From IMG/VR virus record IMGVR_UViG_3300032332_001787, positions 1 to 64,000 of that record: DNA of 64,000 nt; one strand, given 5' to 3'. The DNA comes from a virus (Duplodnaviria; Caudoviricetes). This document shows, one piece after another, positions 35,336 to 57,517 of this stretch. Every line of letters starts with the position of its first letter. Position 1 is the first letter of the stretch. The position numbers and the translations under genes were made by a program. Below the pieces are notes generated by a model. The model ran no database searches and was not told the DNA's origin. It saw nothing but the letters and a program-made list of their open reading frames with translations.

Positions 35336-35627
35336 TACATTTGCTTTAAAGTCTCCTTACTATTTCTAAACCTCCCGGCATTTTTTGAAACTCTCAGAAA
35401 ATTGACCTATAAAACAGAAAAACACCCTAACTCTATATAGGGTAATAACTTAGGGTGAGTATGAGACGCCCGGCTTGACGTAAGTACCTGCTATATATAG
35501 ACTTACGACAAATTCTAAAAAATATTTTGTTTGGCATGAAATTATATTTAAAAATCCAAAGATTTCTCTTGAAAGCGTCGATAAATACTGTATAATAGGA
35601 TCAACACAAGAGAAAAGGAAAAGAATC

Positions 35628-35777: not shown

Positions 35778-36739
35778 CAAGCAGATAGCCGATAGGATAT
35801 AGTGAAATCAACACAAGGGAAAAGAAATGACCATTCAAGTACAAAACACGATTCGCCGCCTAGTTGCTCGACACGGATATTCGGCTACATTTGTTCAGCA
35901 CTTGGGAGAAGGTATTCTTTTGTACAGTATCGGGGGTATCATGTATCGAATTCGTGGAGATGGTACGATTCTCTAAAAGCTTGACCTAAAGCCTTACCCC
36001 ATAAGCACTTAGGGCTAGGCGGACGGGCCGGGCTTGACGTAAGTACTTGCCCCATAAGACTTTACGACAACTTAGCAAATGGTATGCCAATATGTAGAAA
36101 AATGATGAAAAGTTTTGTCAAATTCTCTTGACAATAAAATTTGCAAATTTCTCTTGCAATCTCAAGTATGGGATGGTATAATGTCGATATAAGAAGTAAG
36201 AGAGAAAGAGAGAAAGAGAAAATGAGAAAGCCTCCAAAAAGTTCGACTGTCAAGGGTAAAATCAACGCCTATGCCTACAAGTGTGGGTTTACGTTTCACC
36301 CGAAAGAGGATGGTTCGTTTGCCCTGTTCGACATTCACATGGGATACTACGTCTGCCGTGGTTCCCATGATCGTGTTGTCCAGTTCGTGATTGATGAACT
36401 GTGGGCAAAGTATTATCGGTCACAGCCGACCCCCGTATGAGGGGGTTGATTAGACATTCGTTTTAGGCTAAAATACAAACACAAGAAAGAGAGACTCTAA
36501 TGCTGACGATGATTGATTATATTCAACTGTTTGCTCTGATTGCTGGTTGTGCTTTCATCACCTATACTGTGCATGAAGTGGGTAACGCTATCCATTCTAT
36601 GCTACATGAAAACGACTGAGGAGAATATGTCTAGGTATCTGCCCGATGGGTATGTAGATTATGCTACATACAATATTAAAGAGATTTTACAGTTTCTTCA
36701 ACAATTATTAGGGATGATCAGCGAAAGCTGGTAAACAAA

Positions 36740-37057
36740 ATGACACATTTTGAAGCAGTGAAGATGGTTCGTGGTAAGACTAATAAGAATACTCGCAAGG
36801 TTGGTAATAATACCTATGCGGAAATTCTTCCCGATGGTAGCGTAGGGATCATGCTGCATAGTACCTATGTGGTAAAGATTCATCCCGATAATAGTGCTAC
36901 CCTTAATAGTGGGGGTTGGCGTACTAGTACCACTAAGGATAGAATTAACCAGTATTCGCCCGTGCGTGTATATCAACGCAAGGGAGAATGGTATCTGGAA
37001 AGTGGTTTAGAGTATGAAGATGGTATGGTTGTGGCTGATATGAATCTTATCTACTAA
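36740..37057 (+). CDS. Conserved phage hypothetical protein
   Basis: GNNTY..LHST..LNSGGWRTSTTKDRINQY; stop codon ends 2 nt before repeat A3. Confidence 0.55.
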   Translation: MTHFEAVKMVRGKTNKNTRKVGNNTYAEILPDGSVGIMLHSTYVVKIHPDNSATLNSGGWRTSTTKDRINQYSPVRVYQRKGEWYLESGLEYEDGMVVADMNLIY

Positions 37058-38262
37058 ACGTAAGTCCTTGACCCTAAAGCACTTAGGGCAAGGCGGGCCG
37101 GCCCCGCTCGACGTAAGTGCTTATACAGTAAGGGTTTGCGACGAATACCTATAGCAAATGCTGTGCCAATGCAACCTTACGACATTGTAAGGAAACTTTT
37201 CTCTTGCAAGCTCAAGATGGGCATGGTATAATGTCGATATAAGGATAAGGGAGAAAAGAGATGAAGAACAAGATCAATGTGGGTGATGTGGTCGAAATGT
37301 CGTGTGGGTATGGTACGGTTCAGCAGATCATCGGGAAAAACTATCGGATTCTGCTCTCTGGCCAGTATGGGTATGGTGAGTGGTATACCCTGAGTGATAT
37401 GATATCCCACGCTACCCTGTACCCCAAATGAGGGGTTGACAAAAGATAAAAAATTGTCTAGAATAACAACACAAGAAAGAGAGAAAAGAATGTACGAAAT
37501 TGGTGATAGTGTGGTACTCAAAGGATTTGAGAAAAGGATCGTGGGAAAGATTGTTTCCTATCATTACGATGAGGGTAATGTGTGGGTCGTGCGAACTGAA
37601 GGCGGAAATCTTTGGGATTGTTGCGACAACGAATTGGATATCCTTACGGTATTGTAAGGTTGACACAGTAAAATCCGTTTGGTATAATGCACACACAAGA
37701 GAACGATAGACCTAAGAGAGAAAAGAAAATGAAAACCAAGTATCCAATCATCGAAAATGCCAAGCGTCAAGCCCGTATGATCTTCAAGGGTATCGCAGTG
37801 CCGATGCTCGTGGAAATTCCCGATGATCGAATCACGGAAGATACCGATTACGTCTACGGCGTGACCGACCATAAGCGTTATGTTGTGAGCGAGAAGGTAA
37901 TCAAGTTCAATCGTACCGCACTGAAGAACATTGGCAAGGTTCGCAAGGAAAAAGCCGATCCCCGCTATGTGGGGGGTGAGGATACTATGATCGTTGCGGT
38001 TGGCAAGCCGGGAAGTCGTGAGCGTGTTGAGGAACTGACCAAGCAATACGGTGCGGTTGCTCATCTGGAAATCAGCCCGTTCAGCTTCAAGGGTGATGAA
38101 TAAACGATCACTACTGCACAAAAGCATAGCAGTTGACCTAAAGCGTTACCCTGTAAGTACTTAGGGCGAACGCGGCCCGCCCCGCGAAGCGTAAGTACTT
38201 GTGAGATAACGACTTATGACAACCTTACGATATTGCAAGGAAACTTTTCCTACTCTACCCTA

Positions 38263-38291
38263 TTGACAAATGACGATAATACTTGTATAAT
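38263..38291 (+). promoter_or_regulatory. Representative sigma70-type early promoter
   Basis: TTGACA-17 bp containing GACGATAAT-TATAAT; equivalents at 39307, 42900, 43980, 46868 and 53490, among others. Confidence 0.85.
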
Positions 38292-39592
38292 GGTGACAGA
38301 AAGAAAGAGAGAGTTGAAGATGGAAAAGGTTACGAGTGTGAATGGTTTTATTGGTTCGCTTCCCAGGATTCGGAGGCGTAGGATTTGGAGTGTGACGATT
38401 GACGGAAAGGTTGTTCAAGGCGTGAGTGCCGATGACAACCGAAAGGAAACTGCTGAAGCGTATATTGCTAGCAAGTACCCCGGTCAAGCTTTCACTCTCA
38501 AGTTTGTTGAGTGGAGAATCTGAACCTTACGGTATTGTAAGGTGTTGCAGGCTAAAGGTTGATGTGGTAGAATGTCGATAATAGGTATAGAGAAGATGAC
38601 CAGTAACCAAGAGGAAAAGATGAGTAACATTGTGTTGCCCCAGCGGTATGATTGGGTGGAGTTTGACTATAAGGGTGAGAACTTCCGTGGTGAGGTTCGT
38701 AGGGTTGAAGATAAGCCCAAGGGTAAGTTGATGATTGTGAAGATTGGACATACTGAGTATCGGTCGTGCTACCTTGACCAGTGTGAGAATCTGACCACCA
38801 CCCCTGCTGAAACGGAGGCTTGAGCATGAGAATGATCGAATATCCTTTTGTGTGGGTTATGGGGGCTTTCCTTAAAGTGATGGAAACTCTCTGTGAAGTT
38901 TGGCAGAGGATCAACGAATATGAGAATATGAAGTCTAGGGGTTATACTCTTATGAAAAGTGATAAGGGTGATGATTTCTGGGTAGGTTATGGGGATTGAC
39001 CACTTAAACAAAATGGAGATACAGGGATGTATCAATTTGATTTTATTAGTGTCGCTTTCGGCTATGTTTGTGGTATTATTCTGTATGCTAGTATGTCAAA
39101 TATCATGTATATGGAGGAAAGTGATGAAAGTGAGTGACTACATATTGTGGGGGGTGTGTTTTGTTATTGGCTGCACTATGACGTATCTCCTTCATCTGTA
39201 AGGACTTACGTCAAGTTCGGCCCGCCCCGCGAAGCGTAAGTGCTTATGCTGCAACACTTTACGACAACCTTACAGCATTATAAGGAAACTTTTCTGTTGA
39301 AAGGTATTGACAGTTGACGATAATAGATGTATAATCCTAGCATCTTAACCCCAACTGAGGAATGTCTAATGTCGAATACTTTCTACTGTCTGGAATGTGA
39401 TGCTGACTGTGGGTCTTTTGAGCATTGCTGTGCTTGCGAGGACAATCCCGCGATGGAGAATCGTGAGCATCCCGGTTTCATCTCAAGTGCAGAGATTGAG
39501 AGTGAAATTCAGACTGAAAATTTCTGGTATGAATACGATCAGCGTTGACAGAGTTGATTAGACTTGGTAGAATAAGCCCATAACCCTTACCT

Positions 39593-39805
39593 TTGGAGAG
39601 TTTATCTATGAACGAAGATTCCTTTCTCGACTCCTACATGGAATCCTATATCGGTGGTTGGACAGGCGATGAGGATGCCTATTACGCCGAAGATGAGGCG
39701 GAGGATGGGTATCTCAAAGAACCTGAAGATTACGATATCTGGGATGATGAGGACGATGGTGGAGATGGGTTCATGACCTGTCCAGAGGACATCGGAGACT
39801 ATTGA
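39593..39805 (+). CDS. Highly acidic small protein
   Basis: D/E/Y-rich; TGA ends at 39805, directly before repeat A6. Confidence 0.55.
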   Translation: MESLSMNEDSFLDSYMESYIGGWTGDEDAYYAEDEAEDGYLKEPEDYDIWDDEDDGGDGFMTCPEDIGDY

Positions 39806-40229
39806 CGTAACCCCCGGCCCTATAAGGACTTAGGGCAAACCGGGGCGGCCCCGCGTAGCGTAAGTCTTTATCCGTCAAGAGTTTACAACAACCTTACGAA
39901 ATTGCAAGGAAAAACTTTTATGGTAGGGCTTGCAATGGGTCGATAATAAGTGTAGAATACCAACATCACGAACGGAAACCACAGGAACCAGAATCATGCT
40001 GAACTTTGACGAGATCAACGATATTCTGAACGATATGGCTGAAGCCGGTATTCTTGAGCCGATGGTCGAGCCGATTGACGATCCTAGTGTGGAAGTCAAC
40101 TTTTGGGATTGGGCAGATGTGGTGGGTGCTGTTGACGAATTCGTTCCCGAGGAGTATACTCATGCTTAGTGCGATTGCTTTCGTTGTGGGCTATATTGGC
40201 TTGTTTTACATTACTACCATCGTGAGGGA

Positions 40230-40511
40230 TTGACCATGAGCTACGAATATGACGATCTTGAAGATTTTTATGGTATCGACGCTGATGATCGTACTAATGA
40301 TTATTGGGCTGGAAATGATGACCTGGAGAATGATTCTGATGATTCATTTGATGATAGTATGGATGGTGATGCTGAATCTGCGTTGGCTTCCGCTGGATGG
40401 GGAACCGACGAAGACTATGGTTACTATGGTGACGATGGAGTAGAAGATTTCCACGCCGATGAGGCTATCGGATTCGTTGATTACAACGACGATGGCCCAT
40501 ACGATGACTGA
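40230..40511 (+). CDS. Highly acidic small protein
   Basis: Very Asp-rich with only one basic residue; contains ALASAGWGTDEDYG. Confidence 0.6.
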   Translation: MTMSYEYDDLEDFYGIDADDRTNDYWAGNDDLENDSDDSFDDSMDGDAESALASAGWGTDEDYGYYGDDGVEDFHADEAIGFVDYNDDGPYDD

Positions 40512-41595
40512 ATTACTCGCCGTAAACCCTTTGTGCCTAAGCACTTAGGGTTGGCGGGGCGGGCCGGATTTGTCGTAAGTCTTTATCCTGCAACACTTTG
40601 CGAGAACCTTACGAAATTGTAAGAAAACTTTCTAGTTGACAACTAAAGTTTCATGTGCTAAAATGTCGATATAAGAGATAGAGAAAGAGAGAGTGAAGAA
40701 TGAGTTGGAATGGGTATCAGATGAGTAGGGATATGTGGGGTAACATGAAGCATGAGCATATCCATGTTGGTTGGACTGTGACGTTTGATATGGATGGTAA
40801 GCGTTACTCGTGGAATCTTAATGCAAAGTATAGAACTAAGATTGACGTTGAACGTAGGGTTTTTGAGAAGTATCCTACTGCTACTAATGTTCGTTGCAAC
40901 AAGAATATTTGTGAAGTTTGAAGGGAATAAAATGAGACAGTTAACCAAAAACGAAATAGCCGATCTAGAATTTGACGCTGAACTTATGGGCTTTCGGGTA
41001 GTGTATCTTCCCAAACCTCTTGACTGGAATCATTTTGTGTTGTATTATCTCAAGCCAGAATTGACTTATGTTGGTCACTATCGTGGTTTGAATGAGGTCA
41101 AGCTAGGTATGCAGAAGCACTACAAGCCGGAGTATAGTGAAAAATGAACGATCTACATTATGAATTTTTGTTGAAAGCGATGTATCAAAAACCTAAAAAG
41201 AAAAAGGTTCAACACGGGTCTGCTGGTCGTAACTACTACGGTGAGTTGAAAAGATTTAAAGGCTATCGTGGCCCATTAAAGAAAGATGAAGAGCAGAAAT
41301 GACTAATGAAGAAAAATGGATTGAATATCGTAAGTCTGTAGGCTTGACTGAAAAGTCTCCAGAAATTGAAGCTGGTTGGAATAAGGAATATAATTGTTCT
41401 AACCGAGTTGGTCGATTAATTTACATGAACGATTCTGATACTTACGGAGACTGAAATGAAAACGAAAAAGAAGGTATTGACAGCACACGAAAAAGCTGTT
41501 ATACTCATGAATCGTGAAGCTGGTCGTGCAGTGAATCGTGTGAAGATGTTGGAACGGTTGTATCTTGAAACTATGAAAGCAAAGGAACTTGTTAA

Positions 41596-41826
41596 ATGAA
41601 GTGCGTTGTTACCCATACCGATACTTATGGTGGTGAAGCTAACTATGGTTGGGTGAATCGTTATGAATTCATCCCCAAGAAGAATGCTAGCCAGCGTAGC
41701 GTTATTCGTAAGGCTAAGGCTCTGGCCGGTATGACAGCAGTCAAGGCTGAGACCTATGACTATGGCGACGGCTATACCGTTAAGCCTCGCGGCTATGCTC
41801 AGATCATCTTTGTTGATTTTGAGTAA
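41596..41826 (+). CDS. Conserved phage hypothetical protein
   Basis: TDTYGGEANYGWVNR motif. Confidence 0.5.
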   Translation: MKCVVTHTDTYGGEANYGWVNRYEFIPKKNASQRSVIRKAKALAGMTAVKAETYDYGDGYTVKPRGYAQIIFVDFE

Positions 41827-42016
41827 ACTCTCCCTCGTCGTAAACCCTTTGTGTTCAAGCACTTAGGGCCGACGGGGCGGGCCGGGCTTGCTGTAAGTCC
41901 TTATCTACCAACACTTTACGAGAATCCTTACAATCTATTAAGATTCAAGTTACCCCCTTGCAATAGACGATAATAGATAGTAGAATACGATATAGAAGAA
42001 AGGCAAGGGTGAAGAC

Positions 42017-42280
42017 ATGAGTCCTGACGGAAGCTATAACGGTTATGTAAACTACCAGACATGGAATGTTTGCTTGTGGATTAGTAATGATGAAAATCTG
42101 TATAGTCTGGCAAAACAGTGTGGTTCTTACGAACATTTCAGGATTTTGATTCGTGAGATTTTTACCACAGCCCCTATCCGATTCGAAACGCCCGATTGTG
42201 TGGCTTGGAATGATAGTGGTATCAACATGGCCGAAATGGTAGAGTATTGGGAAGAAAATTTTTCTAAAGTTTGTGCTTGA
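42017..42280 (+). CDS. Conserved phage hypothetical protein
   Basis: YNGYVNYQTWNVCLWISNDE motif; follows the promoter after repeat A8. Confidence 0.55.
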   Translation: MSPDGSYNGYVNYQTWNVCLWISNDENLYSLAKQCGSYEHFRILIREIFTTAPIRFETPDCVAWNDSGINMAEMVEYWEENFSKVCA

Positions 42281-43677
42281 CAAATGACGATATATAGTGT
42301 AGACTTGGCGTATGGATGTTGTGATCGATTTTCAATTTGAAAGGGTTTCTATGAACGATGTGATTTTGTTTGGTTCGATTCTGTCGGCTGTTGCCGCTGC
42401 TGTTGTGGGCTTTGTCTTCTATTCCGTTTACGGTGGAAGTAAGGCCAGTTTGGCGAATGCTCAAGAGGGTCAGGTTTTCAACTTTGTCTACGAACAGCCA
42501 TTGCATGGAACGCATGAGCGTTTTCTTGCCAAGGTGATCGGAAAGCAGACGCTGACTGCTGACCAGATTAAGAGACTGAATCGTAAGAGTCGGTATCGTA
42601 TCAATGATCCTGAGTTTGTGCGTACTACCAATCTGGTAACGTGTCGAACTGCGGATGGTAAGGTGCGTAATTTCTATGCAGAACGAGTAACCAAGTGCCG
42701 AAAGCCGTTGCTGGCCGGTGCTTTGTTCAAGAGCGGGTTTGCTAACCTGTTCTAAAAACTAGCAGTCTCTGCCTACTAACTGACCAACCCCTAACCCTTT
42801 GACACCAAAGGACTTAGGGCGAGGTCGGCCGGCCCGCTTCGTCGTAAGTCTTTACGTATCAACGCTTTACGACAATCTTTTTTGTTCAAGTTTTTCCTCT
42901 TGACAGGCCGATAATAGTAGTGTAGAATACAAGGAATCAAAAGGAGAAAAACAGATGTTTATGTTCAATAAGCCGTATGCTTTGACCGATGCTGTGACTC
43001 GTGAGGTTAGTGACGAGGATATGGTAACTTTTAGTGGCCTTAGTGTTGGAGGTCGTGAGTTTAGGATAGTCACGCGACTTGACGATGCCCAGCGTTGGAT
43101 TAATGGAGAGTTGATTCAAGTTGCTTTTCCGTATCTGTCTGCTGATGATCGTGAGATTCTCAAGACGGGAATCGATGCTCAGGATTGGGAAACCATGTTT
43201 GCAGGAACAAGAGAGGAGGATGAGTGATGAATACTGATACTTATATGGTGATGAAAGGCAATAAAGTTGTAGGTTATGTTCAAGCGTACAGTACCTATCA
43301 TGCCTTGTGTCAGGCGGAAAAGTTGTATGGGAAGAATTTGCTACTTGAGCGAATTTCCAATAGTTGTCCTGCCTAATCCTTCGGATTTGGGCTGGATGGG
43401 TATAGTCAGCCAGTAGTCGGGGCTTGACAAAGAGTCTTTAATAGAGTATACTTGGAGTAAGGAGAAAATTATGCTGACAAGTGAAGAAAAGGGTTTGATT
43501 GCTGGTCGTGTGGCTAGTTTTGCTATGAAGATGGTTATACAGGCTAATGATTATAATCCTGAGGTTATGACCGCAGAACTGGATAAGTTTCAGGCTTTTA
43601 TCTGTAGCGCTCTTGAGGCTGCTATTCGTGATGGTAGGCGTGAAGCACTCGTTACAACTCTTAACTAAGGAAGTATC

Positions 43678-43857
43678 ATGAGAATTTGTCCGTGTGGGTC
43701 TGGCAAGAAAAGTTGGTGGGAAAGTGATGCTAGGGGAATTCCACTGGGTAGGGTTTGTTTGGATTGTTTGGATAAAAAGTTGAGTAAGTATAGGCCAGAA
43801 GTGTTGACCAACTCCAACTACTATGCTGACGAGCCTATTGAGGCCGAGGACTACTGA
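43678..43857 (+). CDS. Small Cys-motif protein
   Basis: Manual translation MRICPCGSG...DARGIPLGRVCLDC; TGA ends 2 nt before repeat A10. Confidence 0.6.
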   Translation: MRICPCGSGKKSWWESDARGIPLGRVCLDCLDKKLSKYRPEVLTNSNYYADEPIEAEDY

Positions 43858-44016
43858 TCGTAAGTCCTTATCCTTAAAGAACTTAGGGTAAGGCGGGCCG
43901 GCCGACTTTGACGTAAGTGCTTGTGTATCATAGGGTTACATCAACTCTAAAAAATTTTTGGAATTCCTATAGAAGCCTCTTGACAAGTGACGATAATAGA
44001 TGTATACTTAGCACAT

Positions 44017-44716
44017 AAGCAGATGAGGGCCGCTGGCAGAATGATATCAAAGTAGCCACGGTTAAATGGCTGTCGAGTATGGCTCAACCCTATCTGCTTT
44101 ACAATACAAAACTCGTGGGTCCATGCCTTGGACTAGGTTGGGTAACTCATTACGATAAGCATCGCATGTCGCGGCAGCGATGATGCTGACAGTGCCGGTT
44201 ACGCACTGGATAGTAGTGCTAATCTATGGGGGATCGCGTCCTCACCACGTTATAATACAATCCGGTATTATCCCTCATCGGGTAATAGAGTGAATTAACA
44301 CTGCAACAATGCGCTTGCATTTTATCCTTCATCGGGTAGAATCACTGAAACAACAGCCGGATACCGAACAATCAGTAACCGTTCCCAAGAGCCAGACCAG
44401 AGCGATCTGTTGCTAGCAGACAATCGCTTTGCAGGGAGGATTTCCGTGGACGGTTTCCACCAGTTTTTACCTTGCTCCAAGGGTTCATAATATCGGAGTA
44501 TTGGTGGGTTATAGAATCGGGGCGTAAACGATTCGCTGGTTACAAACAGGGGTCGGATAGAAACCACCAAATGACGGTCTGTGGTTGGTTAATGCGTGAT
44601 ACCGGACATTATCTGTAAAACTATCGTGGTGATAAAACAAGCACGCTCTAGCAGCGTATGGGTGCGATTCCCATATCATCATAAGTCGATCCATTAACAG
44701 CCGGTATACAATACAA
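44017..44716 (+). ncRNA. Putative large structured ncRNA or ncRNA array
   Basis: Follows the TTGACA/TATACT promoter at 43980-44008; no convincing plus-strand ORF; more than 12 hairpins; TAYAATACAA at 44100, 44251 and 44707. Confidence 0.75.
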
Positions 44717-46320
44717 AGGAGAAGAGATGACTAAAGAAGAATCAGACAGAAACGCAGCAATAGTTTATGTTCTTAGGGTTCTAAAAAGCCCAATGATGAT
44801 CAGGAGTCCTGCTAAAAAAGACGCATTGACTTTAGCAGAGAGGTATGGTATAACGGTGACTGATTTGATTAATGAGTATGATGAGATAACAAAGAGAATA
44901 TAATGAACTGGCATTATGGTGATCCGATTTTGAATGGTCAATATCTGTGTTGTGTTAAGGATTATTCTTTCCCCTTTCCGTTGTTCTGGAGTGTGGAGAA
45001 TGGTGGTTGGGGAGATTGGTGGCATGGTTCTCTTGGAGATGAGCTTGAGTCGTGGAATCAGTTTGACAATTCGTTAGTGGTGTGCTATACTAGCTTTCAA
45101 GAAATTCCTATGCCGGAGGGTTGGTAATGATCTACTTAAATATTAATGAGATTGAACGATTGGCCGAAATTGTGGCCGAACTGGTTAAACTGAACATGTG
45201 TGTGGTTGCTGAGTTGAAGGGAACTAAGTGGAGTATTGAGGTAACTAAATAATGGAATGGATTAGTTTTTTTGAACGACAGCCAGAAGATGGTCAGGGTA
45301 TTTGGTATTATGGTGAGCATATTGGTGTGTGGGCTGGAGAGTATTCTTATTCTCCAAATGACCCTTTTAGTCCTCATCTTATATTTTGTCATGAATCTCC
45401 CGGTCTGGTTGACCGAATGGACGCTCCGTGGTGGATGGTTGATGATGGGGTAATGAACAGGCCAATCAAACCAGCAAAAGATTATCCAGCCGATTATCCT
45501 AGTTGACATAAGTCCTTGCTGCTAAAGCACTTAGCTCAAGGGCGGGCGGGCGGTTTCGTCGTAAGTCCTTGCTACTAAAGACTTTATGATTAGCAATATT
45601 TTTTCAAGATTTTCTCTTGACTTGTCGATAATAGTAGTGTAAGATACTAGCAACACGAAAGGGAAAATGATGACTGTATATGAGCTTATCAAAAAGTTAG
45701 AAGATTATCCATTGGACATGAGGGTTTTGACCCTTGGGTATGAGGGTGGGTTCAATGATGTCTCGTTGCAGACCGACGAGATTGTTTTCAATGTGAATGA
45801 TAAGGACAGGTGGTACTATGGTCCTCATGAGTCTGTGAGACATATGGATGGGGATAAGGGTGAGAAGTGCTTGATTATTGGGAGAGGAAAATGAAAACGG
45901 TAGAAAAACACGCCGAAGTACGATTTCATTTGCTCAACGGTAAAAATTTCCGAAAATGGCAAGTAAATATTATGCAAGGTAAGAAAAGGGTTGATCAATT
46001 TTATGTAGACCCGGCCGAGTACCAGTTGGAGATGAGGGGTTGCAAGCTGGTAAATAAGGTAGCTAGGGCGAAATGGGTCAATAAGAAACAGAAAAAGAAT
46101 GTTAGTGGTTGGGTGCAGTGTGAAGAGGTTATGCTTCGCAAAGATTTTTATCCCTCTTTGCCTATTGACAATCTTGAGAAGTTGTATTATAATCCCATTC
46201 GTGATGTTCACTGGCGACGAGAGAGTGATGGTGGTGAGTTTGTTTGGGATAACAGTGAGTATGACACCTTAGTTACCGATGGGCGACAGGTTCATATTCT
46301 AGAAGAACGTAACGGAAATT

Positions 46321-46746
46321 TTGACGGTATTTACGAGATCGACCCTAAGTATACAGAAAGTTTTGGAATTTATGATCAAAATCGAACTGAGCGTCCGTGA
46401 GTCGTTGAACATGATTGCCAACGGTTGCAGTCTTGATATGTTCGACAAGATTGTGTGTGCATTGGAAGTGGCACTGGGTGTGAACCAGCGTCGTATGGTG
46501 ACGATTACCGGAGGTCTGACTCTGGACAATCGTATCCATTCCATCAAGGCTATTCGACTCCACACCGGATGGGGTCTCAAAGAGGCCAAGGATTGGAGTG
46601 ATTATCTGGTTGGTGGCTGGCATTACGACAAGTTCGTTCCTGCCAAGTCCGGGGCCAAACAGAGCATCACTCTGAAAACGCCCGAAGCGGCAGAGGCACT
46701 GCTGCGTGATTTGGTTGGGCTGGGTTGTGAGGGTTATCTCTCATGA
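46321..46746 (+). CDS. Protein with ribosomal bL12 (L7/L12) C-terminal-like domain
   Basis: RIHSIKAIRLHTGWGLKEAKD resembles the L7/L12 motif KI.VIK.VR..TGLGLKEAKD; real start is probably downstream (MIKIEL). Confidence 0.7.
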   Translation: MTVFTRSTLSIQKVLEFMIKIELSVRESLNMIANGCSLDMFDKIVCALEVALGVNQRRMVTITGGLTLDNRIHSIKAIRLHTGWGLKEAKDWSDYLVGGWHYDKFVPAKSGAKQSITLKTPEAAEALLRDLVGLGCEGYLS

Positions 46747-47358
46747 CCTAAAGCCTTGTCCCTAAAGAACTTAGGGCGAGGCGGGCCGGCCGAATTTGAC
46801 GTAAGTCCTTATCAGCAAACAACTTAGGACAAAATAAAAAATCTTTGAGGCTCACTCAAGTTCCCCCTTGACAATGACGATACTATACTGTAGAATGAGA
46901 GTATCACGAGACAAGACTCCGCAATGATGCCAACAACAGAAACCATCACGACGGACTTGACAAGTGGGTATCAGTAACGTATACTGGTACTAGAACGATT
47001 GGTAACTGTAACATTTTTGGAGAAATGACATGAAGAAGTTTAGTTTTGTGGTTGATGTTGTGGCTGATGAGCTTGATCGTGATTCGGTTGTGGATTCGAT
47101 TCGTGACTGTCTGAGCGGTAGCCTTCCTGGCGATGTTCATGCGAATGTCAAGGCCGGTGAGGTCAAGGCTTTCAGCGAGCAGGGTTATAAGGTGTGGCGA
47201 GCGAGGGTTACGGGTGTGACAGCCGAGCAGGCTGGCGATGCCCATGATGGTAAGGTAGAAAAGGAAACTGCCGAAGCGGTTGCATGATCGACCGCAGGGA
47301 GTTATAATGGCTGCGAGCCTCCACGGGACGCCGTGGGGGCTTGCGGTATTGACGAGAC

Positions 47359-47432
47359 GACTCCGTAGCTCAATTGGATAGAGCGAGCGGCTTCTATCCG
47401 CTAGGTTGGGGGTTCGAGTCCCTCCGGGGTTA
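47359..47432 (+). tRNA. trnR: tRNA-Arg(TCT)
   Basis: Cloverleaf: GACTCCG/CGGGGTT, anticodon loop CTTCTAT, T-loop TTCGAGT. Confidence 0.92.
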
Positions 47433-47437
47433 TTGTT

Positions 47438-47512
47438 GGGGGTGTAGCTTAATCAGGTTAGAGCGTCGGCTTGTCAAGCCGAAGGTTGCGGGTTCAAGTC
47501 CCGCCACTCTCG
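47438..47512 (+). tRNA. trnD: tRNA-Asp(GTC)
   Basis: GGGGGTG/CACTCTC, anticodon loop TTGTCAA, T-loop TTCAAGT. Confidence 0.92.
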
Positions 47513-47528
47513 TTTATTATCTGAGTCG

Positions 47529-48116
47529 CTATTGATAGAAATGTTCTTCTCTGTGACAATTACTGCATAAGATAATACATTTATCTATTTCAGTCTTAAT
47601 ATCTTCTAGAGAAGCATTTTTATCTCTGAGCATAGCACCTATTCCATCTGTCTTATTGTTTTCTGTATGATGGAAATCTAAACATTCTGGTGACGACAAT
47701 CCGCATTTATGACATGAAGATTTTTGCTTTAGTTCTAATACATACCTAGCTTTTTTAGTAAGATATTTATATGTATTAGTATGTTCTTTTCTATGGCAGT
47801 TAGAGCAAATAACGTCGCATTTATTTATTTCTGCTAAAACTATTTCGGTTGAATATCCATGACGAATAAGATTGCATACTGTATCTTTTTTTGTATCTGG
47901 ATTTCTATGGTGAAAATCTAGACAATAGAATCTAGTCTCTCCACAGATTTTGCATGGGTTATTTTCTTTGAGGTTTTGAACTAGAGTTCTGTTATGATCT
48001 TTAGTTTTGTTCTTATATCTCTGTTTATATACTCTAACTCTGTCAATATTTTTATTAGCCCATTTAGTATTATTGGTTATTTTAGCTTTGCTTGTTTTAT
48101 TCTTTTTCATGGGCAT
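47529..48116 (-). CDS. Endonuclease with two tandem HNH domains
   Basis: CKICG..LDFHH..CDVICSNCHRKEH and CHKCG..LDFHH..CIILCSNCHREEH. Confidence 0.8.
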   Translation of the reverse strand: MPMKKNKTSKAKITNNTKWANKNIDRVRVYKQRYKNKTKDHNRTLVQNLKENNPCKICGETRFYCLDFHHRNPDTKKDTVCNLIRHGYSTEIVLAEINKCDVICSNCHRKEHTNTYKYLTKKARYVLELKQKSSCHKCGLSSPECLDFHHTENNKTDGIGAMLRDKNASLEDIKTEIDKCIILCSNCHREEHFYQ

Positions 48117-48303
48117 CTCCTGTATAAATTAATACACCAAATCTTAGCAATACGAGGGGATTTGTCGTAAGCCTATACCATCAAAGAACTTAGGAGAAAT
48201 GCGGCGAGCCGGGTTTGACGTAAGTCGTTCTCGCATAAGGACTTAGAGCAAAATATTTTTCACTAAAGAATATCTCTTGACTTAGCCGATTATTAGGTTA
48301 TAC

Positions 48304-49032
48304 TTGATAGACACGAAAGGGAAAAGTATGAAATACGCTATTGGTAATGACAAGTTGGGTAAGAATTGCTTGGTCGTGAGTCGTCCGGTTGGCGATACTT
48401 GCCCGCCCGATTGCGACTATCTTGGGAATGGATGCTATGCCGAAGCTACTGAAAATCAGTATAAAAATGCTCGCACTGCTGGATTCTCCAATATCATTAC
48501 GGAAAAGAATAAAATCCGTGCGATGATTCTGGAAGCAAAGCGTACCCAAAAAAGTATTCGCTGGCAAGAACGTGGCGATTGGTTTCTTAATGGACAACTT
48601 GACCTAGAATATGTTGCAAACGTAACATGGGCTTGTGAGAGTATTCTGGCCGATGGCGATACTTTGCCCGATATGTGGTTTTATACTCATATCTACGATT
48701 CTCGGCTTGTGAGTCTGGAAAAGTATATGAATGTGTACGCTAGTGTGCATGACGATAATGATATGGGTGAAGCACTATCGCAAGGTTTCAAGCTGTTCGC
48801 ATGGTGTGATAGCGATATGAAAATTGCACCCAAGCGACCCAAGAGCAAAGCAAAAGCCGAAGCATGGCGAAAAGCACTGCCGAAGCTGGTGGTTCTCAAT
48901 GCTACAAAGTTTGTGGTATGTCCAGAAATCCGTCGTGGTCGGTCAGAAATCACTTGCACCGGCACTAAAGATAGTATATCATGTGACTTGTGTGTTCGTG
49001 GTTTGGCTAATGTCTTGTTTCCAGCCCATTGA
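48304..49032 (+). CDS. Gp88-like Cys-rich phage protein
   Basis: TCPPDC..CYA, IRWQERGDW, WFYTH and C..C.LC motifs, as I recall for the GP88 family. Confidence 0.55.
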   Translation: MIDTKGKSMKYAIGNDKLGKNCLVVSRPVGDTCPPDCDYLGNGCYAEATENQYKNARTAGFSNIITEKNKIRAMILEAKRTQKSIRWQERGDWFLNGQLDLEYVANVTWACESILADGDTLPDMWFYTHIYDSRLVSLEKYMNVYASVHDDNDMGEALSQGFKLFAWCDSDMKIAPKRPKSKAKAEAWRKALPKLVVLNATKFVVCPEIRRGRSEITCTGTKDSISCDLCVRGLANVLFPAH

Positions 49033-49613
49033 AAGGAATAAAAATGAGCTACGTTGGATTGTATGATGATGCAGGAAGTAAAAATGCTTTCTATATTATC
49101 AAAGACAAAAAGATTGACCGTAAACGTGTGGGCTTCAAAGAGTTTGAGAGTGAGAAAGAGGCTAAGTTTGCCCATCGGGTTCAAAAGCATCTGGCACAGT
49201 TTGATTTGGCCCCTATGGTATATGGGGATGTTGGTTTTATTCGTAGGAATGATGGACAATTTACCTACTATGGTTATTTGACCGAAGTTGCTCGACCTAT
49301 GCCAACGTGCCATGATGATGATTGTGATGGCGAATGTTTTCAGAGTGAATGTAGTAATGGCACTACTATCAGTGAAGTAGTTTATGATTTGGGTGAACAT
49401 GGACTAGAATATAACGATGTCCACAAGGGTAATTTTGGTTATGTTCGACGCAAAGGATCATGGGTTCCGGTTGCTATCGACCTTGGGGTTGAGAGTTTTA
49501 CTGATTGGGATGAAGATATTTATGGGAAGTTTGATTATGATGCCGATGAAGATGTTGACAGCTATGGTGCGTGTAATTGTGCTCACTGCAAACAATTTAG
49601 AGACAGGGGATAA
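49029..49613 (+). CDS. Protein kinase-like (APH/ePK fold) protein
   Basis: VGFKEF (VAIK-like), DVHKGN (catalytic loop) and IDLG (DFG-like). Confidence 0.6.
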   Translation: MKGIKMSYVGLYDDAGSKNAFYIIKDKKIDRKRVGFKEFESEKEAKFAHRVQKHLAQFDLAPMVYGDVGFIRRNDGQFTYYGYLTEVARPMPTCHDDDCDGECFQSECSNGTTISEVVYDLGEHGLEYNDVHKGNFGYVRRKGSWVPVAIDLGVESFTDWDEDIYGKFDYDADEDVDSYGACNCAHCKQFRDRG

Positions 49614-50599
49614 TCATGGCAAAGTATTATATCAAATGTGGAACACTAGAACTAATTTACTCTTGCAATAAATGTCCAAGGGATGCTGCAATGGATGCTA
49701 TATGGGAAACGAATGAAAATGATACACTAGATGAACACTTCTATATAGATGAGCGTGGGTATAGAGACTATGTTACTGCTGATGGACATACTTGTGTATT
49801 AAATACTGGTCATATTCTCATAGACGCAGGATGGAGTATTGAATAATGTGGACAAAAATAGACGATAAAAAAGTAAGACACTTATGGGAATGTGCTGATT
49901 GTGATAATCTAGTTTATGTAGAGCCTTGGTTTTATTCAGAAAACGGCGAACCTTTTTGTACAACGTGCGAGAAGGATATGGAGTATATTCGAACAGAAGT
50001 AGATATGTAGCCTTTTCCGCAAACCCTTACTGCATAAGCACTTAGGGCGAGCGGGGGCGGCCGAATTTGACGTAAGTCCTTAGCCCGCAACACTTTAGAG
50101 CAAATTCAAAAATCTTCTAAAGTTTCCCTACTGGATTAGTCGATAATATTGGTATGGAAACGAAGCAAGAAACCAAAAGGAATGGACAGATGATCCAGTG
50201 GGTAGGGATTCTGATTACTCTGGTGGGTTTGGCCTATACGGGAATCAAAGATTATCAAAAAGGTGATATAAAATTCCCTCCCATGCCTCAGAAACCGGCC
50301 TTGACAAAGGTAGTTTATCCGGTACAATACTGTCTGATGGCTTACGATCCTAATGTTGACAAAGTTTTTTATCTACACGAAAACGGACAATGGCATGATT
50401 ACGCTCCACAACAACGACGATATGAGACCACGCCGCAACCATATCAAACTCAAGGTGCGACCGCAGTGGCAGGTTCCTACGGGTCACAAGGAACACCGAC
50501 ATACCGTTATGGACAATCGCCCCAAGCGTCAACGAACCCGATCCGCTGAAAACCGCAGGGCTTGCGAGAACGGAGACTATTGACTATAATAGTAGGATT

Positions 50600-50672
50600 G
50601 CCGATGTAACTCAGTTGGTAGAGTAGCAGTTTTGTAAACTGCCTGTCATCAGTTCGATTCTGATCATCGGCT
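50600..50672 (+). tRNA. trnT: tRNA-Thr(TGT)
   Basis: GCCGATG/CATCGGC, anticodon loop TTTGTAA. Confidence 0.92.
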
Positions 50673-50673
50673 C

Positions 50674-50939
50674 TCGGGAATGGTGTAACGGTAGCACAAG
50701 TGACTTTAATAAACTGGAGTGCGTCAAGAGAAATTTTGATGTAGAACCTCTCAAATTCGGGGAACGCTTAACTGCCAATCCCGAGCCAAGCCGGAAACGG
50801 AAGGTGTAACGACTTGACGGGAGGCACCTAAAACTTTTAGTCATGGTGATGGTAAAGTCTAGACTACAAACCGTAAGGGTAGCGAAAGCTATAGTAGTAA
50901 GTGGATCACTTTGTCTAGGTTCAAATCCTAGTTCCCGAA
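50674..50939 (+). tRNA. trnQ: tRNA-Gln(TTG) interrupted by a group I intron
   Basis: Exons 50674-50706 and 50902-50939 join to give TCGGGAA/TTCCCGA, anticodon loop CTT^TGGA and T-arm CTAGG-TTCAAAT-CCTAG. Confidence 0.88.
50707..50901 (+). mobile_element. Group I self-splicing intron, 195 nt, IC3-like, no internal ORF
   Basis: P/Q/R/S-like elements CTCAAATTCGGGGAA, AATCCCGAGCCAA, GGTGTAACGACTTGACGG and GGTAAAGTCT; 5' exon ends in U and the intron ends in G. Confidence 0.88.
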
Positions 50940-51631
50940 TTTAGTTTTTGCCAATAGCCTCTGCGATTAGTTAATTGGATTCCATATGCTTTAGCCCATT
51001 TACGAACAGAGTTATCTGTTACGTTATATTTTTTAGCTATAATACTCATAGGTATAGTAGCAATTAATTTTTCTAATTCCTCTTTAGATGGTCTTTCTAC
51101 TTTTCTGAGCCATGGTTTAGAAGTTTGTTTGATTTTAATCGGTTTTATCTTTTTGAATCTTTTACCAGCATAGGTATCTGTTTGGCTATGACAATTAGGA
51201 CACAAAAAACATAAATTAGATAATCTATTATCATTAGGAATTCCATTTTTGTGTTCTAGTTGCAAAGATATTTTTTTATTATTCCAGACATCTTTTAATC
51301 CGCATGACTCACACTGATATGGTATTAATTTATTTTGTATAATTCTTTTTTTTATACCACCCCTATTTGTTGTTCCGTTCTCGCAAAAAAATTGATCATC
51401 AGTTTTCTTTGGTGAAAATCTTTTACCTTTATTAGAGCCTCTACCAAGCGAAATGTGAGACATATCTATATTCTCATCTTTAGCTCGTCTTTTTACAGTA
51501 TGGTGGTTTCCTCCTTTATTATTTAAACCAAAATGACGTAGTATATCTGCTATTGTGTTTGATCTACAAACTAGAGTTTGGAATTCTTCTGTAGAAATTG
51601 ACCATATAATACTTCTTTTTTTTCTATTCAT
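50921..51631 (-). CDS. Free-standing HNH homing endonuclease
   Basis: CESCG...LQLEHKNGIPNDNRLSNLCFLCPNCHSQT; N- and C-terminal HTH-like segments; stop overlaps the tRNA-Gln 3' end. Confidence 0.85.
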   Translation of the reverse strand: MNRKKRSIIWSISTEEFQTLVCRSNTIADILRHFGLNNKGGNHHTVKRRAKDENIDMSHISLGRGSNKGKRFSPKKTDDQFFCENGTTNRGGIKKRIIQNKLIPYQCESCGLKDVWNNKKISLQLEHKNGIPNDNRLSNLCFLCPNCHSQTDTYAGKRFKKIKPIKIKQTSKPWLRKVERPSKEELEKLIATIPMSIIAKKYNVTDNSVRKWAKAYGIQLTNRRGYWQKLNSGTRI

Positions 51632-51720
51632 GTTTAACTCCTTATTGGTACCATATATTATACACCATTCTGGTGTCTTGACAAGTTGCTTTATTCTGTT
51701 ATAATAGCATAAATCGACGG

Positions 51721-51792
51721 TGTCCGATAGCTCAACGGTAGAGTAGGCGGCTGTTAACCGCTTGGTTCTAGGTTCGAATCCTAGTCGGACAG
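51721..51792 (+). tRNA. trnN: tRNA-Asn(GTT)
   Basis: TGTCCGA/TCGGACA, anticodon loop CTGTTAA. Confidence 0.92.
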
Positions 51793-51797
51793 CTTAG

Positions 51798-51887
51798 GGA
51801 AGAGTGGCAGAGTGGTCATAATGCACTGGTTTACTAAACCAGCGATCTCTTAACCGGGGTCCGTGGGTTCGAATCCCACCTCTTCCG
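51798..51887 (+). tRNA. trnS: tRNA-Ser(ACT) with long variable arm
   Basis: GGAAGAG/CTCTTCC, discriminator G, stem CTGGT-TTACTAA-ACCAG. Confidence 0.85.
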
Positions 51888-51890
51888 TTT

Positions 51891-51973
51891 GGTAGATTAC
51901 TCAAGTGGACAACGAGGGCAGACTGTAAATCTGCTGGCTATCGCCTTCGGGAGTTCGAATCTCTCATCTACCA
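51891..51973 (+). tRNA. trnY: tRNA-Tyr(GTA)
   Basis: GGTAGAT/ATCTACC, anticodon loop CTGTAAA, long variable arm. Confidence 0.92.
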
Positions 51974-52136
51974 CTAAGTTGTTGATATGAAAGAACTTAG
52001 GACAAATCCGGCGGACCGGGTTCGACGTAAGTCCTTGCAACATAACGACTTAGGATTTTCTAAAGTTTGTTCTTGACAACTGCCGATAACTAGTGTATGA
52101 TTGCTAATCGGAGGCTGGCGACTGAGTTACGAGAGT

Positions 52137-52586: not shown

Positions 52587-52639
52587 CTTGACAGTGACGA
52601 TTGTTGGTGTAGAATAGAGGTAAGAAAGGGAGTAAAAAT

Positions 52640-52903: not shown

Positions 52904-53407
52904 ATGAACGCTTTCCAGCAAGAGCTTGATGACTTTCGGCGTACCCCAGATGGTAAAATCATTCAAGGGGCTGCTCATACTAGCAGAGTATTAAATCACA
53001 AATATCGAAATGATGTGATTATCAAGGCTGTTTGTTCTCTGCGTAAGATTGAGAATGATTTTGACAGTATTGCTTGTTGTGGTGTGAGTGGTTTGATGGT
53101 AGTACCACAGATTGCGGAGATTCTCAATAAGAATATTATAGTTATTCGTAAGGATGAGCGGCGATATAGTGAATTCTTTATCGAAGGTGTTACTCCATCT
53201 AATTATGTTATTGTAGATGATTTAATTTGTTCTGGTAATACGGTTAAACGTATAACAAATAATATTCGTGCTGATGTTCCACGAGCAAAATGTATCGGTG
53301 CATATTTCTACATGGGTGAGGAGTGTGCCTATAATGCTTCCAATTCTAAACTTTTTGAGAAGCAGTTTGGGACGATCATCCTAAACCCTTACCGGCCAAA
53401 GACTTAG
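52904..53407 (+). CDS. Type I phosphoribosyltransferase-like protein
   Basis: PRPP-binding loop YVIVDDLICSGNT; IACCGVSG; VIRKD. Confidence 0.8.
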   Translation: MNAFQQELDDFRRTPDGKIIQGAAHTSRVLNHKYRNDVIIKAVCSLRKIENDFDSIACCGVSGLMVVPQIAEILNKNIIVIRKDERRYSEFFIEGVTPSNYVIVDDLICSGNTVKRITNNIRADVPRAKCIGAYFYMGEECAYNASNSKLFEKQFGTIILNPYRPKT

Positions 53408-53534
53408 GACAAGGTGGGGCGGCCCCGGTCGCCGTAAGTCCTTATCTGTCAACCACTTACGACCTGCGTAATTTTTCCAAAGTTTTCGCTTGACAGTGAC
53501 GATAACATAGTGTAGAATCAGTGAAGTAGAACGA

Positions 53535-54515: not shown

Positions 54516-54540
54516 TCCCTCGCAATGAGGGTTGACACGG

Positions 54541-54576
54541 GAGCCGCCACTCAGCAATGGGTGGCGGTTCTTTTTT
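54541..54576 (+). terminator. Rho-independent terminator
   Basis: GAGCCGCCAC...GTGGCGGTTC followed by TTTTTT. Confidence 0.85.
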
Positions 54577-57517
54577 GTGCCTAGGGCATTTCGTATAAAC
54601 CCTTATCAGCAAAGGACTTAGGGCGAGCGGGGCCGCGAAATCTTGTCCTAAGTTCAATGACACCAAGCACTTGCGTCAATTTAGTAAAAGAATCTCGTAA
54701 GCCCCCTATTCCCAAAGGGTTGGAATGACGATATACTGTATGTGGACGTAAGGTGTGTAGTGGCAAGGGTTTAGGTTAAAATAGTAATAGAATTATAATA
54801 ATGAGTTGTATATTTTTCAAATCCGTATTTGTCTCGCCTAATCCTGCGGAATTGCTGACGTTGCTGATAGTCAGCCAGAATAGTGGCTATAATAACAAGC
54901 CTCTCTGTTCCTAAGTTCTTATGTTTTAACCACTTGCGTCAAGTGTTAGAGTGTGGTATACTAGAAGGAGTAACAACGATAGTAATAAGCTGATCAATAG
55001 TTGAGACTAATTCTCAATAGATAAAGATGGTTAGATTAGTAGTCTGATAATGTAGTCAGGCTAAATCACAGACCCCTTGAGAATGATGCAGGAAAGAAAT
55101 GAAAATTGTATTAGAAATAAATAGCTCTGAGGATTTTGACTACGAGTATTTTATTGACTGGCTCAATGACCAGTTGTTTGATAGTTCTATGTGTGGAACT
55201 GATGTTGATGCTGGTATTATTAGTGTGAATGGGGAGAATAAATACTAATGAAAGTTACTGATGAAAATAGACAAGAGATTATGAGTACCTATTGTAGCCG
55301 TCTCTTGGACGATATGGACTTTAATACTCTGTACAATTTTGCTTATGATATGTTGAGAGATAATAAAGAGGGATTGACCAATAAAATGTTGGAAGAACAG
55401 ATTACTGACTATTACCCTGACCTTTTGGAGACTGCATAATGCAAAAACTTTGGGATGAATCTGGTCAACCTCTTTTCTATAAAGAAAACGGAGAAAGAGA
55501 TTATCTTCAGGAAGCTCGTTATAGATACGTTTCTCCATCATGGATGAGCATGGCAGCATACTCTTGTTGTCCTGAGGAATTACAGGCCAGATTGAATAAC
55601 ATGGAGTGGGATGGAAAAACTCAATATATAATCAACAAGGAGAATAACTAATGGAAGTAGAACTTAGTAAACAAGAAGCTTGGAAGATTCTAGATGCTCT
55701 TGTTGCTTATAAGAAAGATTATACCTTAACGGGGCCAGTTAATAAGATTTTTGACAACATTACTAAAAAGCTCAAAGAGATTGTAAAGGATTAGTGGTGT
55801 AATAATTAGTAGGTTTGGGCCACCTTATTGTGGGGGCTTTATGTTGATATTGTGGAGAATATTACGAGCGATCTTTTGCGGATGTTTATTCGCCTGGATC
55901 GGAGTCTCTATGATGGAAACGGAACTAGAGATTCTTACTAATAGTTCTTATAAGGAATATATGGCTCTTGATCTGTTTTATGGATATTTGAGCATACGGA
56001 AGTTTTATGAGAATATTGTTTATGTTGCAGGAATAAACTTTATTCTAGGATTGTTAATAGGACTAATCTGGAAACCTGGTAGTATTAAAATCTAACAAGA
56101 GCGGTGAGTTGTTCTTGTAAGTTGTTTGGTTTCAAGGATTTGCGTCGAATGTGACGATATGGTATGATAGTGTTGTGGCGGTTGTGGTCAACATCCCTTT
56201 TCTTGTGAGGCACCATGTTCTATTTTGCTTTTATTATTTGTATTGGTCTTGGTGTTGCTAATGGCCTTCAAAATAGTTAAATGAATAGTATAAAAATCCT
56301 TGTTGAGTTTACTATGGCACAGACAAAGAATTCCATGAATGAAACTCTAGACAAGGCTCTATTAGATTCTTAGTATCTATTACTTATATCTTATGTGCTA
56401 TCAGAAGACTTGTAAATATTATCAATCAACCCCTGCATAATACATACTCTTTTCTCAAAACCCTGTCAAGGTAAAAAATTTCTTATGTCAACTTATTATT
56501 TATCGAGCAATGTAGATAGTCAGCCAAAGTGGTGGGTCAGTTAAAAAAGAGATAAGAAGTATAATTTGGTTCCTCAACCCTTCAGGGTATAATACAGTAG
56601 TCAACGGAGCCAATAGTCAAGCGTCATGGTGAGATGATGCGGGGCTTACGGAATCATGGGCAAAAGAGTTGTTTTTAAACTTTTACCATGAGGTGATTTA
56701 TGAAAAGTCGATTTATAGGTTCGGATAATAGGGTTGAGATTCAAAGAAAGTATATTGATCAGATCTTGGGTGAATTAGATTTCATGCAGATCAAAGATCG
56801 TTTAAGAGATTATCTGAGCAAGGAAAAAGATAAAGAATCTAATTATGCTTTGGAAGCTGAGATACGAAAAGAAGCTCCAGAAGTATTAGTAGATAATTGG
56901 GAAAGTTTTGATGGGCCAACTACCTTAATAGAGGAAGAAGGATATCATCATGCTTAAAACTTTCCATAGAATAATTTCTTTTGAAGTAGAGGGTGAGATA
57001 TATGATAACTCTACCTCTCCTGAAGATATTTTAAAAAGCTATGATTGGAGATTCAAAGGATTCCATGACAACCATGAGGATAAATGTTTTTTAGAATCAT
57101 CTCATGATAATAGTCGTGGACGTATTACTAAAATTATTCGAAAGAATAAAATTGGTAAAACGGACAGAGCAGATACAGAAACTTTTACAATCAAGAACTG
57201 AGGTGCTTTATGAATTATACATTAGTTTATTGGAGCGTTGGAGCTTTAGTAACATTGTTAGCATTAGTATCACTATACTATTACTCATGCCATTGTTCTC
57301 CTCCAGCTATTAAATAGTAAGTAAATAATAAATACCAATTACTAAGTCCGGTGGAATTAGTCCCAGCTAATCCGCCGGATTTGGTTTTATTGGTAGTAGT
57401 CAGCCAGATTGGGTGGTCAGTAAGAATCAGCAACTTGTCTAAAGCACGGATTAGCCTATTATAGTCTAAACGACAGTCGCACGGACGCGACATATTTTTC
57501 ACCAGGAGACTATTTTT

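Follow-up and report, generated by a model that had tools for sequence, protein, structure and literature searches.

Contact between stop codons and a promoter-phased repeat in a freshwater jumbo phage probably reflects mostly compaction and built-in stop triplets

A stop-abutting repeat in a compact early region

The window analyzed here, the 64,000 nucleotides at bases 1 to 64000 of the 230,097-bp virus record IMGVR_UViG_3300032332_001787 (Duplodnaviria; Caudoviricetes), which CheckV estimates to be complete, carries 17 copies of a palindromic repeat, the family A element, within a rightward early region of small genes and tRNAs (35.4 to 54.7 kb). Genes upstream of these elements often stop at or within a few bases of the repeat, and this adjacency is genuine and family-wide, but it mostly reflects extreme compaction together with the stop triplets of the repeat itself and is not a recombination scar. 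The repeats mark the boundaries of cassettes that are swapped between related phages, an exchange that seems to fit the principle of the promoter early stem-loop (PeSL) cassettes of T4-type phages and not that of integrons. The whole explanation, in which compaction and built-in stops combine with a DNA-binding array and with cassette exchange by homologous recombination, is in our judgment probably correct.

An earlier note on this DNA, made from the letters alone, had described stop codons and the end of a tRNA-Tyr lying directly before the elements, and every coordinate it gave for the stops, the tRNA-Tyr end, and the elements was reproduced. The adjacency also exceeds a randomized expectation: with each element placed uniformly between its upstream stop and the downstream −35 box, 1.24 copies are expected to have a gap of ≤3 nt, and 7 of the 11 testable copies do (P = 2.8e-5). 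Median gaps in the window are 3 nt upstream and 32 nt downstream, and the nonadjacent copies are 6 of the 17 (A1, A4, A7, A8, A9, and A17; Table 1).

The same pattern extends across the family. A 15-base element pattern matched more than 116 IMG/VR stretches, in which nhmmer found at least 588 copies in 114 loci from ∼95 related viral contigs among the matches listed; the family-wide figures given below rest on these matches (588 copies, 510 of them distinct, and 504 unique for the analysis of covariation). Where the upstream open reading frame (ORF) has at least 60 codons (411 copies), stops collect at a few element offsets, namely +3/+4 (112 copies), −3/−4 (41 copies), +9 (16 copies), +24 (18 copies), and +32 (33 copies). 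A stop lies within −3 to +5 at 25% of the elements, compared with 2% of random positions.

Built-in stop triplets and the absence of spare DNA

ORFs terminate at fixed positions because the conserved words of the element contain stop triplets. Among the 510 distinct copies, TAA is present at column 10 in 84%, TAG at column 33 in 77%, TAA at column 25 in 47%, and TGA at column 5 in 27%. The conserved triplets shut two reading frames in ∼80% of the copies and the weaker TGA shuts the third in 27%; within 43 nt, 30% of the copies have a stop in every frame, versus 6 to 9% in controls. An ORF that reaches or enters an element would be expected to end at one of these few positions. The earlier note had proposed that a conserved TGA flank of the box doubles as the stop codon, and the TGA box does serve as the stop at A2, A6, A11, and A12; the flank itself is weakly conserved, however, as its frequency at column 5 indicates. 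At the equivalent column 58 of the second half-unit, a position that never ends a gene, TGA occurs in 32% of the copies, and the TGA at column 5 is thus not a stop-selected flank.

Signals other than the element are abutted in the same way. The element loci also contain 282 strong TTGACA promoters that lack an element; at 55 of these the upstream stop coincides with the TGA within TTGACA, and at 37 it lies 2 to 5 nt before it. The same two bins hold 116 and 57 of 406 elements. In the window, an ORF stops on the TGA of the −35 box of a plain promoter at 39545, showing that a stop can overlap a signal other than the element. Two further ORFs, with ends at 37431 and 37657, leave 4 and 2 nt, respectively, in front of a −35 box. 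The stop-to-(−35) gaps in the window are 4, 2, −4, and 7 nt, with 0 for tRNA-Lys, and eleven gene pairs either overlap by 1 to 7 nt or are 1 to 2 nt apart. General intergenic compaction accounts for the junction distances, and the suggestion that adjacency reflects insertion at the element edge rather than drift is not supported by this comparison. The sharp stop pile-up at +3/+4 is also what would be expected of an attC-like recombination site, with site-specific insertion of cassettes at its 5′ edge placing stops at a fixed junction, but plain promoters show such a pile-up as well.

The region probably tolerates essentially no spacer, such that the end of a gene or tRNA abuts whichever signal comes next, whether an element, a −35 box, or a start codon. 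A fully occupied intergenic interval would then read, in order, stop codon, element, a phased A/T-rich spacer or a small hairpin, the −35 and −10 boxes, a short purine-rich leader, and a start codon.

A rigid double palindrome

The 17 window copies, collected by repeat search and aligned with MAFFT, form a gapless alignment, and nhmmer finds only the same 17 in the whole 230-kb genome, every one of them plus stranded and lying between 35.4 and 54.7 kb. The element is a rigid module of 82 to 96 bp with the layout TTGAC-CGTAAGtCCTT-N7-AAGgACTTAGGGC, a GC-rich core, and TTGAC-CGTAAGTcCTT-N7-AAcgACTTACGaC; the family consensus is TtgaCGTAAAtCCTT-N7-AAGgACTTAGGGC, a GC-rich core of ∼20 nt, and TtGaCGTAAGTcCTTA-N5-CAAcgACTTACGaCaA. 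No indels are present in 577 of the 588 copies (98%), despite sequence variation in the N7 spacers and the GC core. The half-sites (CGTAAGT/ACTTACG type, with the motif words CGTAAGTCCTT / AAGGACTTACG) start at columns 12, 34, 65, and 87, and their spacings of 22, 31, and 22 bp correspond to whole helical turns. Over its full length the element matches its own reverse complement, and the GC core is found in either orientation with respect to the palindromes that flank it, as GGCGGGCCG 93 times and as its reverse complement 37 times. We considered the core as an inversion switch and rejected this, as 0 of 356 orthologous-junction pairs differ in orientation. A search of the literature on the motif words and on intergenic repeats of jumbo phages found no description of the family A element.

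A short palindromic repeat restricted to intergenic DNA, with a full-length match to its own reverse complement and a core in both orientations, is reminiscent of nonautonomous mobile elements of the miniature inverted-repeat transposable element or repetitive extragenic palindrome (REP) type that insert preferentially just after genes. This origin is highly improbable here. Nonorthologous copies are only ∼56% identical, which excludes a recent burst, and orthologous junctions retain the element across relatives whose flanks are 70 to 95% identical; there are no target duplications at the junctions inspected, no transposase is encoded, and the copies are limited to one 20-kb array on one strand. 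The element shares with the REPs and bacterial interspersed mosaic elements (BIMEs) of enterobacteria a composite palindromic structure and a 3′ intergenic position, and BIMEs are DNA-binding sites for IHF and gyrase. It differs from them in that the phage has no RAYT and in being far more rigid, confined to a single array, and promoter phased.

A candidate double-stranded DNA site in helical register with early promoters

We infer that the element acts as double-stranded DNA, as a binding array for a putative oligomeric factor, because of its rigidity, the spacing of its half-sites, the lack of compensatory change, and its phasing to promoters. Mutual information and pair tables for the 504 unique copies show no Watson-Crick covariation for local hairpins, for a central hairpin in any of six registers, or for long-range pairing, and the Watson-Crick/GU fraction equals the independence expectation in every candidate stem. 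At the stem pairs 65-93, 66-92, 70-88, and 72-86, pairing is at or below expectation (0.32 observed versus 0.41 expected for 72-86), and 66-92 has no excess of C:G. RNAalifold gives no consensus fold (−2.9 kcal/mol).

These results bear on the alternative that the element is an RNA-level 3′-untranslated-region (UTR) module of the upstream gene, such as a terminator, 3′ stabilizer, nuclease processing site, or REP-like structure that influences the termination of translation when close to the stop, and must for this reason directly follow the stop. Such a role would agree with the tight upstream distance, with the orientation of all copies along transcription, with the coinheritance of the left part of the element with the upstream gene, and with the hairpins of −22 to −37 kcal/mol into which single copies fold. 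We nonetheless regard it as unlikely, since variable stem positions lack compensatory changes, minimum-free-energy structures differ from copy to copy, the loop and core lengths are fixed though their sequences vary, and the hairpins are not followed by a U-tract. A strong canonical intrinsic terminator (15-bp stem and T run, plus strand, 54539 to 54572) already lies after the DUF932 gene and directly before A17, and a terminator also precedes the orthologous last copy in one complete relative (G005), which argues that the element itself is not the terminator. Helical phasing to the promoter, moreover, is a property of DNA.

A sigma70-like promoter (TTGACA-N17-TATAAT-like) lies 11 to 80 nt past 16 of the 17 window elements and follows 395 of the 510 distinct copies, with further promoters internal to the units. 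The earlier note's unit of an element, a promoter, and one to four small genes or tRNAs is too simple, as strong sigma70-like promoters in the region are about twice as numerous as elements. Distances from the element end to the −35 box are quantized at 11, 21 to 22, 32, 43 to 44, and ∼55 nt, and the periodicity is significant at 10.5 to 11 bp (Rayleigh P of ∼4e-8 for 60 junction clusters, with partial de-duplication). For 74 junctions pooled from six complete genomes, the Rayleigh P is ∼2e-7 at a period of 11 to 11.5 and 3e-6 at 10.5, and the preferred gaps recur within each complete genome. The two sides of the element are probably constrained differently, the downstream spacing because of helical register and the upstream tightness because there is no spare DNA and the stops are built in.

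A second gap series, at 26 and 36 to 37 nt, is represented in the window by copies A4 to A8, several of which have a small hairpin. These hairpins belong to a family of CCTTAC-N6-GTAAGG palindromes that share the TAAG/CTTA words of the A element; besides the copy listed in Table 1, they are found at 37642-37659, 38223-38240, 38525-38542, 39268-39285, 39892-39909, and 40607-40624. At 37642 and 38525 the small palindrome occurs without an element and is wedged between a stop codon and a −35 box.

We propose that the element sits upstream of a subset of the early promoters and is held there in helical register, as an operator or an activator array. Arrays of this kind bound by tetrameric regulators upstream of promoters include class I CRP sites and the four-half-site operators of OxyR/LysR regulators. 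The A element resembles them in having four half-sites in helical register and a −35 distance that changes in steps of ∼10.5 bp, and differs in being present in ∼17 copies per phage genome. To our knowledge, the motif CGTAAGTCCTT / AAGGACTTACG matches no described operator.

Cassette exchange between related phages

Five complete relatives (G001 to G005; 223 to 238 kb) each have 15 to 25 copies in a single array of ∼20 kb. Comparison with these genomes shows synteny in the right half of the array and shuffling in the left half. Neither the order nor the content of the cassettes is constant, in line with the cassette reading of the earlier note. We mapped the 200 nt upstream and 250 nt downstream of the 17 junctions in each of the five relatives, and of these 85 comparisons, 27 are conserved and 11 have their flanks on different elements; for the remainder, one flank or none was found. 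The junctions at A9, A12, A16, and A17 are kept, nucleotide exact, in four or five of the relatives and those at A8, A10, and A14 in two each, and the flanks of A2, A3, A4, and A11 are on different elements in several. The ends of homology blocks of ≥250 bp are 4- to 6-fold enriched at element edges. Histograms of high-scoring segment pair ends were unable to localize crossovers, because generic similarity among elements carries the alignments through the repeat.

Normalized coinheritance with the upstream flank is 0.8 to 1.0 in the left half of the element and falls to 0.36 at its right end; that with the downstream flank rises across the element from 0.13 to 0.5 to 0.7. Maximum-likelihood change-points are spread from column 0, the 5′ edge, to past column 96, the 3′ edge. 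A11 illustrates the outcome, as its left third matches element 16 of one relative (G004; 88%, rare variants included), and its right third and the next 60 nt match element 18 of the same genome (88% and 95%). A11 is therefore a chimera of these two elements, and the two cassettes that separate them in G004 are missing from the window. Further joints are present in metagenome contigs, both element to element (37124>38220 and 45534>39235) and promoter to promoter (40631>37670 and 37243>38315), although the short sides of these joints make them supportive only. We also considered a presence/absence polymorphism of A15 in two relatives (G002 and G003) and rejected it, as these have a different leader arrangement and no clean indel.

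The integron-like insertion at the element edge put forward in the earlier note is thus only partly upheld: homology breaks do cluster at elements and crossovers do fall inside the repeat, but the crossovers do not share one point at the 5′ edge and occur at promoters as well. An attC-like site has some attractions, as the A element is an imperfect inverted repeat directly following the stop of a small gene, its double inverted-repeat anatomy is that of a recombination site, the units are co-oriented and in tandem, and cassette content differs between relatives. A single-gene indel is also bounded exactly by a stop codon and an element edge. The 54-codon ORF at 49846 to 50010 (plus strand) is present in the window, G001, and G003 and is missing from G002, G004, and metagenome contigs; where it is missing, the stop of the preceding gene abuts A14, and the indel spans from that stop codon to the stop before A14.

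Site-specific insertion is nevertheless very unlikely. The complete 230-kb genome has no match to PF00589 (tyrosine recombinase), for which controls were positive in 14 of 14 genomes, and it also lacks PF00239 (serine recombinase; resolvase) and PF01797 (Y1 transposase/RAYT), again with positive controls; no IntI-type integrase is encoded. Integron crossovers occur at one fixed point, whereas the change-points here are spread and coinheritance changes gradually. attC sites have conserved R″/L″-L′/R′ pairing with variable sequence and length (57 to 141 nt); the A element is the opposite, conserved in sequence and fixed in length with no pairing covariation. Integron cassettes are mostly promoterless and share a common Pc promoter, unlike the present cassettes with their own strong promoters, and much of the phage array is syntenic, with nucleotide-exact junctions in its right half.

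We infer instead that exchange proceeds by general homologous recombination. The ∼17 dispersed and co-oriented elements, together with the repeated promoter and 5′-UTR modules, could serve as its substrates, and crossovers in and around these repeats would delete, insert, or swap cassettes and leave chimeric elements behind, with no dedicated recombinase being needed. The PeSL cassettes of T4-type phages are a precedent, as they are exchanged when dispersed regulatory repeats recombine with one another (Arbiol et al. 2010, PMC2839356; Comeau et al. 2014, PMC4122927). Both systems have short conserved regulatory repeats and near-consensus sigma70 promoters interspersed with the small ORFan genes of a plastic early region; in both, the repeats are where indels and replacements between related phages have their breakpoints, and in both, recombination between tandem copies removes the intervening DNA. 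There are also clear differences. The present phage does not belong with the T4-like phages (its terminase shares only ∼23% identity with those of Bacillus siphophages, and it has no near match among cultured phages), and its repeat is far larger, a rigid double palindrome with a GC core in place of the simple terminator stem-loop of PeSL. The A element shows no sign of being a terminator, having neither a consensus fold nor a U-tract; a small hairpin with a T run is present in some copies only. A helically phased spacer separates the element from the promoter.

Possible union of regulation and exchange in one module

Several observations weigh against the combined explanation of compaction, a DNA-binding array, and homologous exchange. 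About half of the TGA boxes that are present serve as stops, versus about one third expected for a random frame, and the +3/+4 stop peak is the largest; together these indicate that some extra pressure or mechanism sets gene ends exactly at the 5′ edge. The palindromic arms could function as hairpins in RNA or single-stranded DNA and vary too little for covariation to be visible. Among 20 early-region ORFs scanned against Pfam and PHROG, none emerged as a candidate for DNA binding or recombination. The spacing data were imperfectly de-duplicated, with one single-linkage cluster taking in 290 junctions. Likewise, the numbers of copy pairs that share one flank only (260 upstream and 607 downstream, among the 510 distinct copies) overstate the independent events, as the pairs are phylogenetically redundant. 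Lastly, the single-gene indel at 49846 to 50010 lies between a stop and an element edge with no second element, and element-to-element recombination fails to explain it.

We note that a large uncultured clade of ∼230-kb freshwater phages shares this rigid, promoter-phased repeat bounding mosaic gene cassettes, and that the PeSL principle, with regulatory repeats as recombination substrates, would thereby extend past the T4-type phages. A more specific proposal, to which we give somewhat less than an even chance, is that a dedicated oligomeric factor, either host encoded or phage delivered, has its operator array in the A element, which is also an exchange scaffold for host-takeover genes across a clade of freshwater jumbo phages. 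If so, a single conserved 82-bp module with at least 588 copies on ∼95 contigs would serve both regulation and cassette exchange. The defined DNA motif could also be used as bait for the factor governing early transcription in this clade.

Table 1. Family A elements and associated signals in the window
Feature	Coordinates	Strand	Remarks
A1	35419..35514	+	Identified by nhmmer and alignment; first and weakest copy of the array; upstream HNH/GIY-YIG gene with end at 35335, gap of 92 nt to TAA box
A2	35978..36073	+	ORF 35802-35984 ends on TGA of TTGAC box; gap 2 nt
A3	37052..37147	+	ORF 36740-37057 stop is TAA, gap 3 nt; left part coinherited with upstream gene in G001
A4	38130..38225	+	Upstream ORF ends at 38103; gap 35 nt; nonadjacent
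A5	39175..39270	+	ORF 38989-39201 passes TAA box by 18 nt (gap −18); stop is element TAA (column 25)
A6	39799..39894	+	ORF 39593-39805 stop is TGA of TTGACG; gap 2 nt
A7	40514..40609	+	Upstream ORF ends at 40511; gap 11 nt
A8	41832..41927	+	Upstream ORF ends at 41826; gap 14 nt; junction kept in G001 and G004
A9	42783..42878	+	Upstream ORF ends at 42755; gap 36 nt; junction kept in four relatives
A10	43852..43947	+	ORF 43678-43857 stop is TGA; gap 3 nt
A11	45500..45595	+	Chimera; ORF 45252-45506 stop is TGA of TTGACA; gap 2 nt
A12	46740..46835	+	ORF 46321-46746 stop is TGA of ATGACC; gap 2 nt; junction kept in 5 of 5 relatives
A13	48159..48254	+	Small ORF 47994-48170 would stop on TAA box (gap −3); upstream differs in every relative
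A14	50011..50106	+	ORF 49846-50010 ends 9 nt before TAA box
A15	51966..52061	+	tRNA-Tyr 51891-51974 (end 51973/51974) occupies TTGAC-box positions, gap 1 nt; TAA box from 51975; −35 at 11 nt past element
A16	53373..53468	+	ORF 52904-53407 (PRTase-like) enters element (gap −26); stop is TAG of CTTAGG (column 33)
A17	54587..54682	+	Last copy; gap 80 nt; canonical intrinsic terminator 54539-54572 before it
Small palindrome family, CCTTAC-N6-GTAAGG and T run	37175..37192	+	Between element and promoter in A3 to A7
Sigma70-like promoter without element	39545..39573	+	−35 TTGACA gives TGA stop of ORF 39327-39548
Promoter without element	52588..52615	+	−35 begins on the base after tRNA-Lys (end 52587)

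The phage and its early region

Late and structural genes in the window are on the minus strand up to ∼33 kb, and from 34 kb on there are small plus-strand ORFs together with nine tRNAs and numerous near-consensus sigma70-type promoters. The DNA runs that contain this part of the genome come from freshwater or lake metagenomes, and no RNA run was listed for the 9-kb stretch searched. Cultured phages gave no match in near or distant nucleotide searches with 10 kb of the region and with a single element, a search of the window against Rfam returned tRNAs only, and the best matches of the terminase are to Bacillus phages.

Two minus-strand ORFs interrupt the otherwise plus-strand array. The first, at 47529 to 48116, codes for a 195-amino-acid protein with no family match, and the second, at 50921 to 51631, has a weak HNH match (E = 0.0096) and adjoins the tRNA cluster. 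Immediately 5′ of A1, the gene at 34196 to 35335 (plus strand) codes for a 379-amino-acid protein with GIY-YIG and HNH_3 domains, and it is not at the corresponding position in the five complete relatives. Behind the promoter at 43980 is a stretch with no ORF, parts of which (44101 to 44247 and 44433 to 44522) are covered by contigs from two freshwater metatranscriptome runs, which contain a small share of the stretch searched, although such contigs are no proof of transcription. Among the small early proteins on the plus strand, the product of the ORF at 42017 to 42280 matches DUF7249 in Pfam (E = 2e-14) and that of the ORF at 36740 to 37057 matches Kyano_Gp96 (E = 4.7e-6); the latter is a family of the Kyanoviridae, which are cyanophages, and the match is a weak hint that the host may be cyanobacterial.

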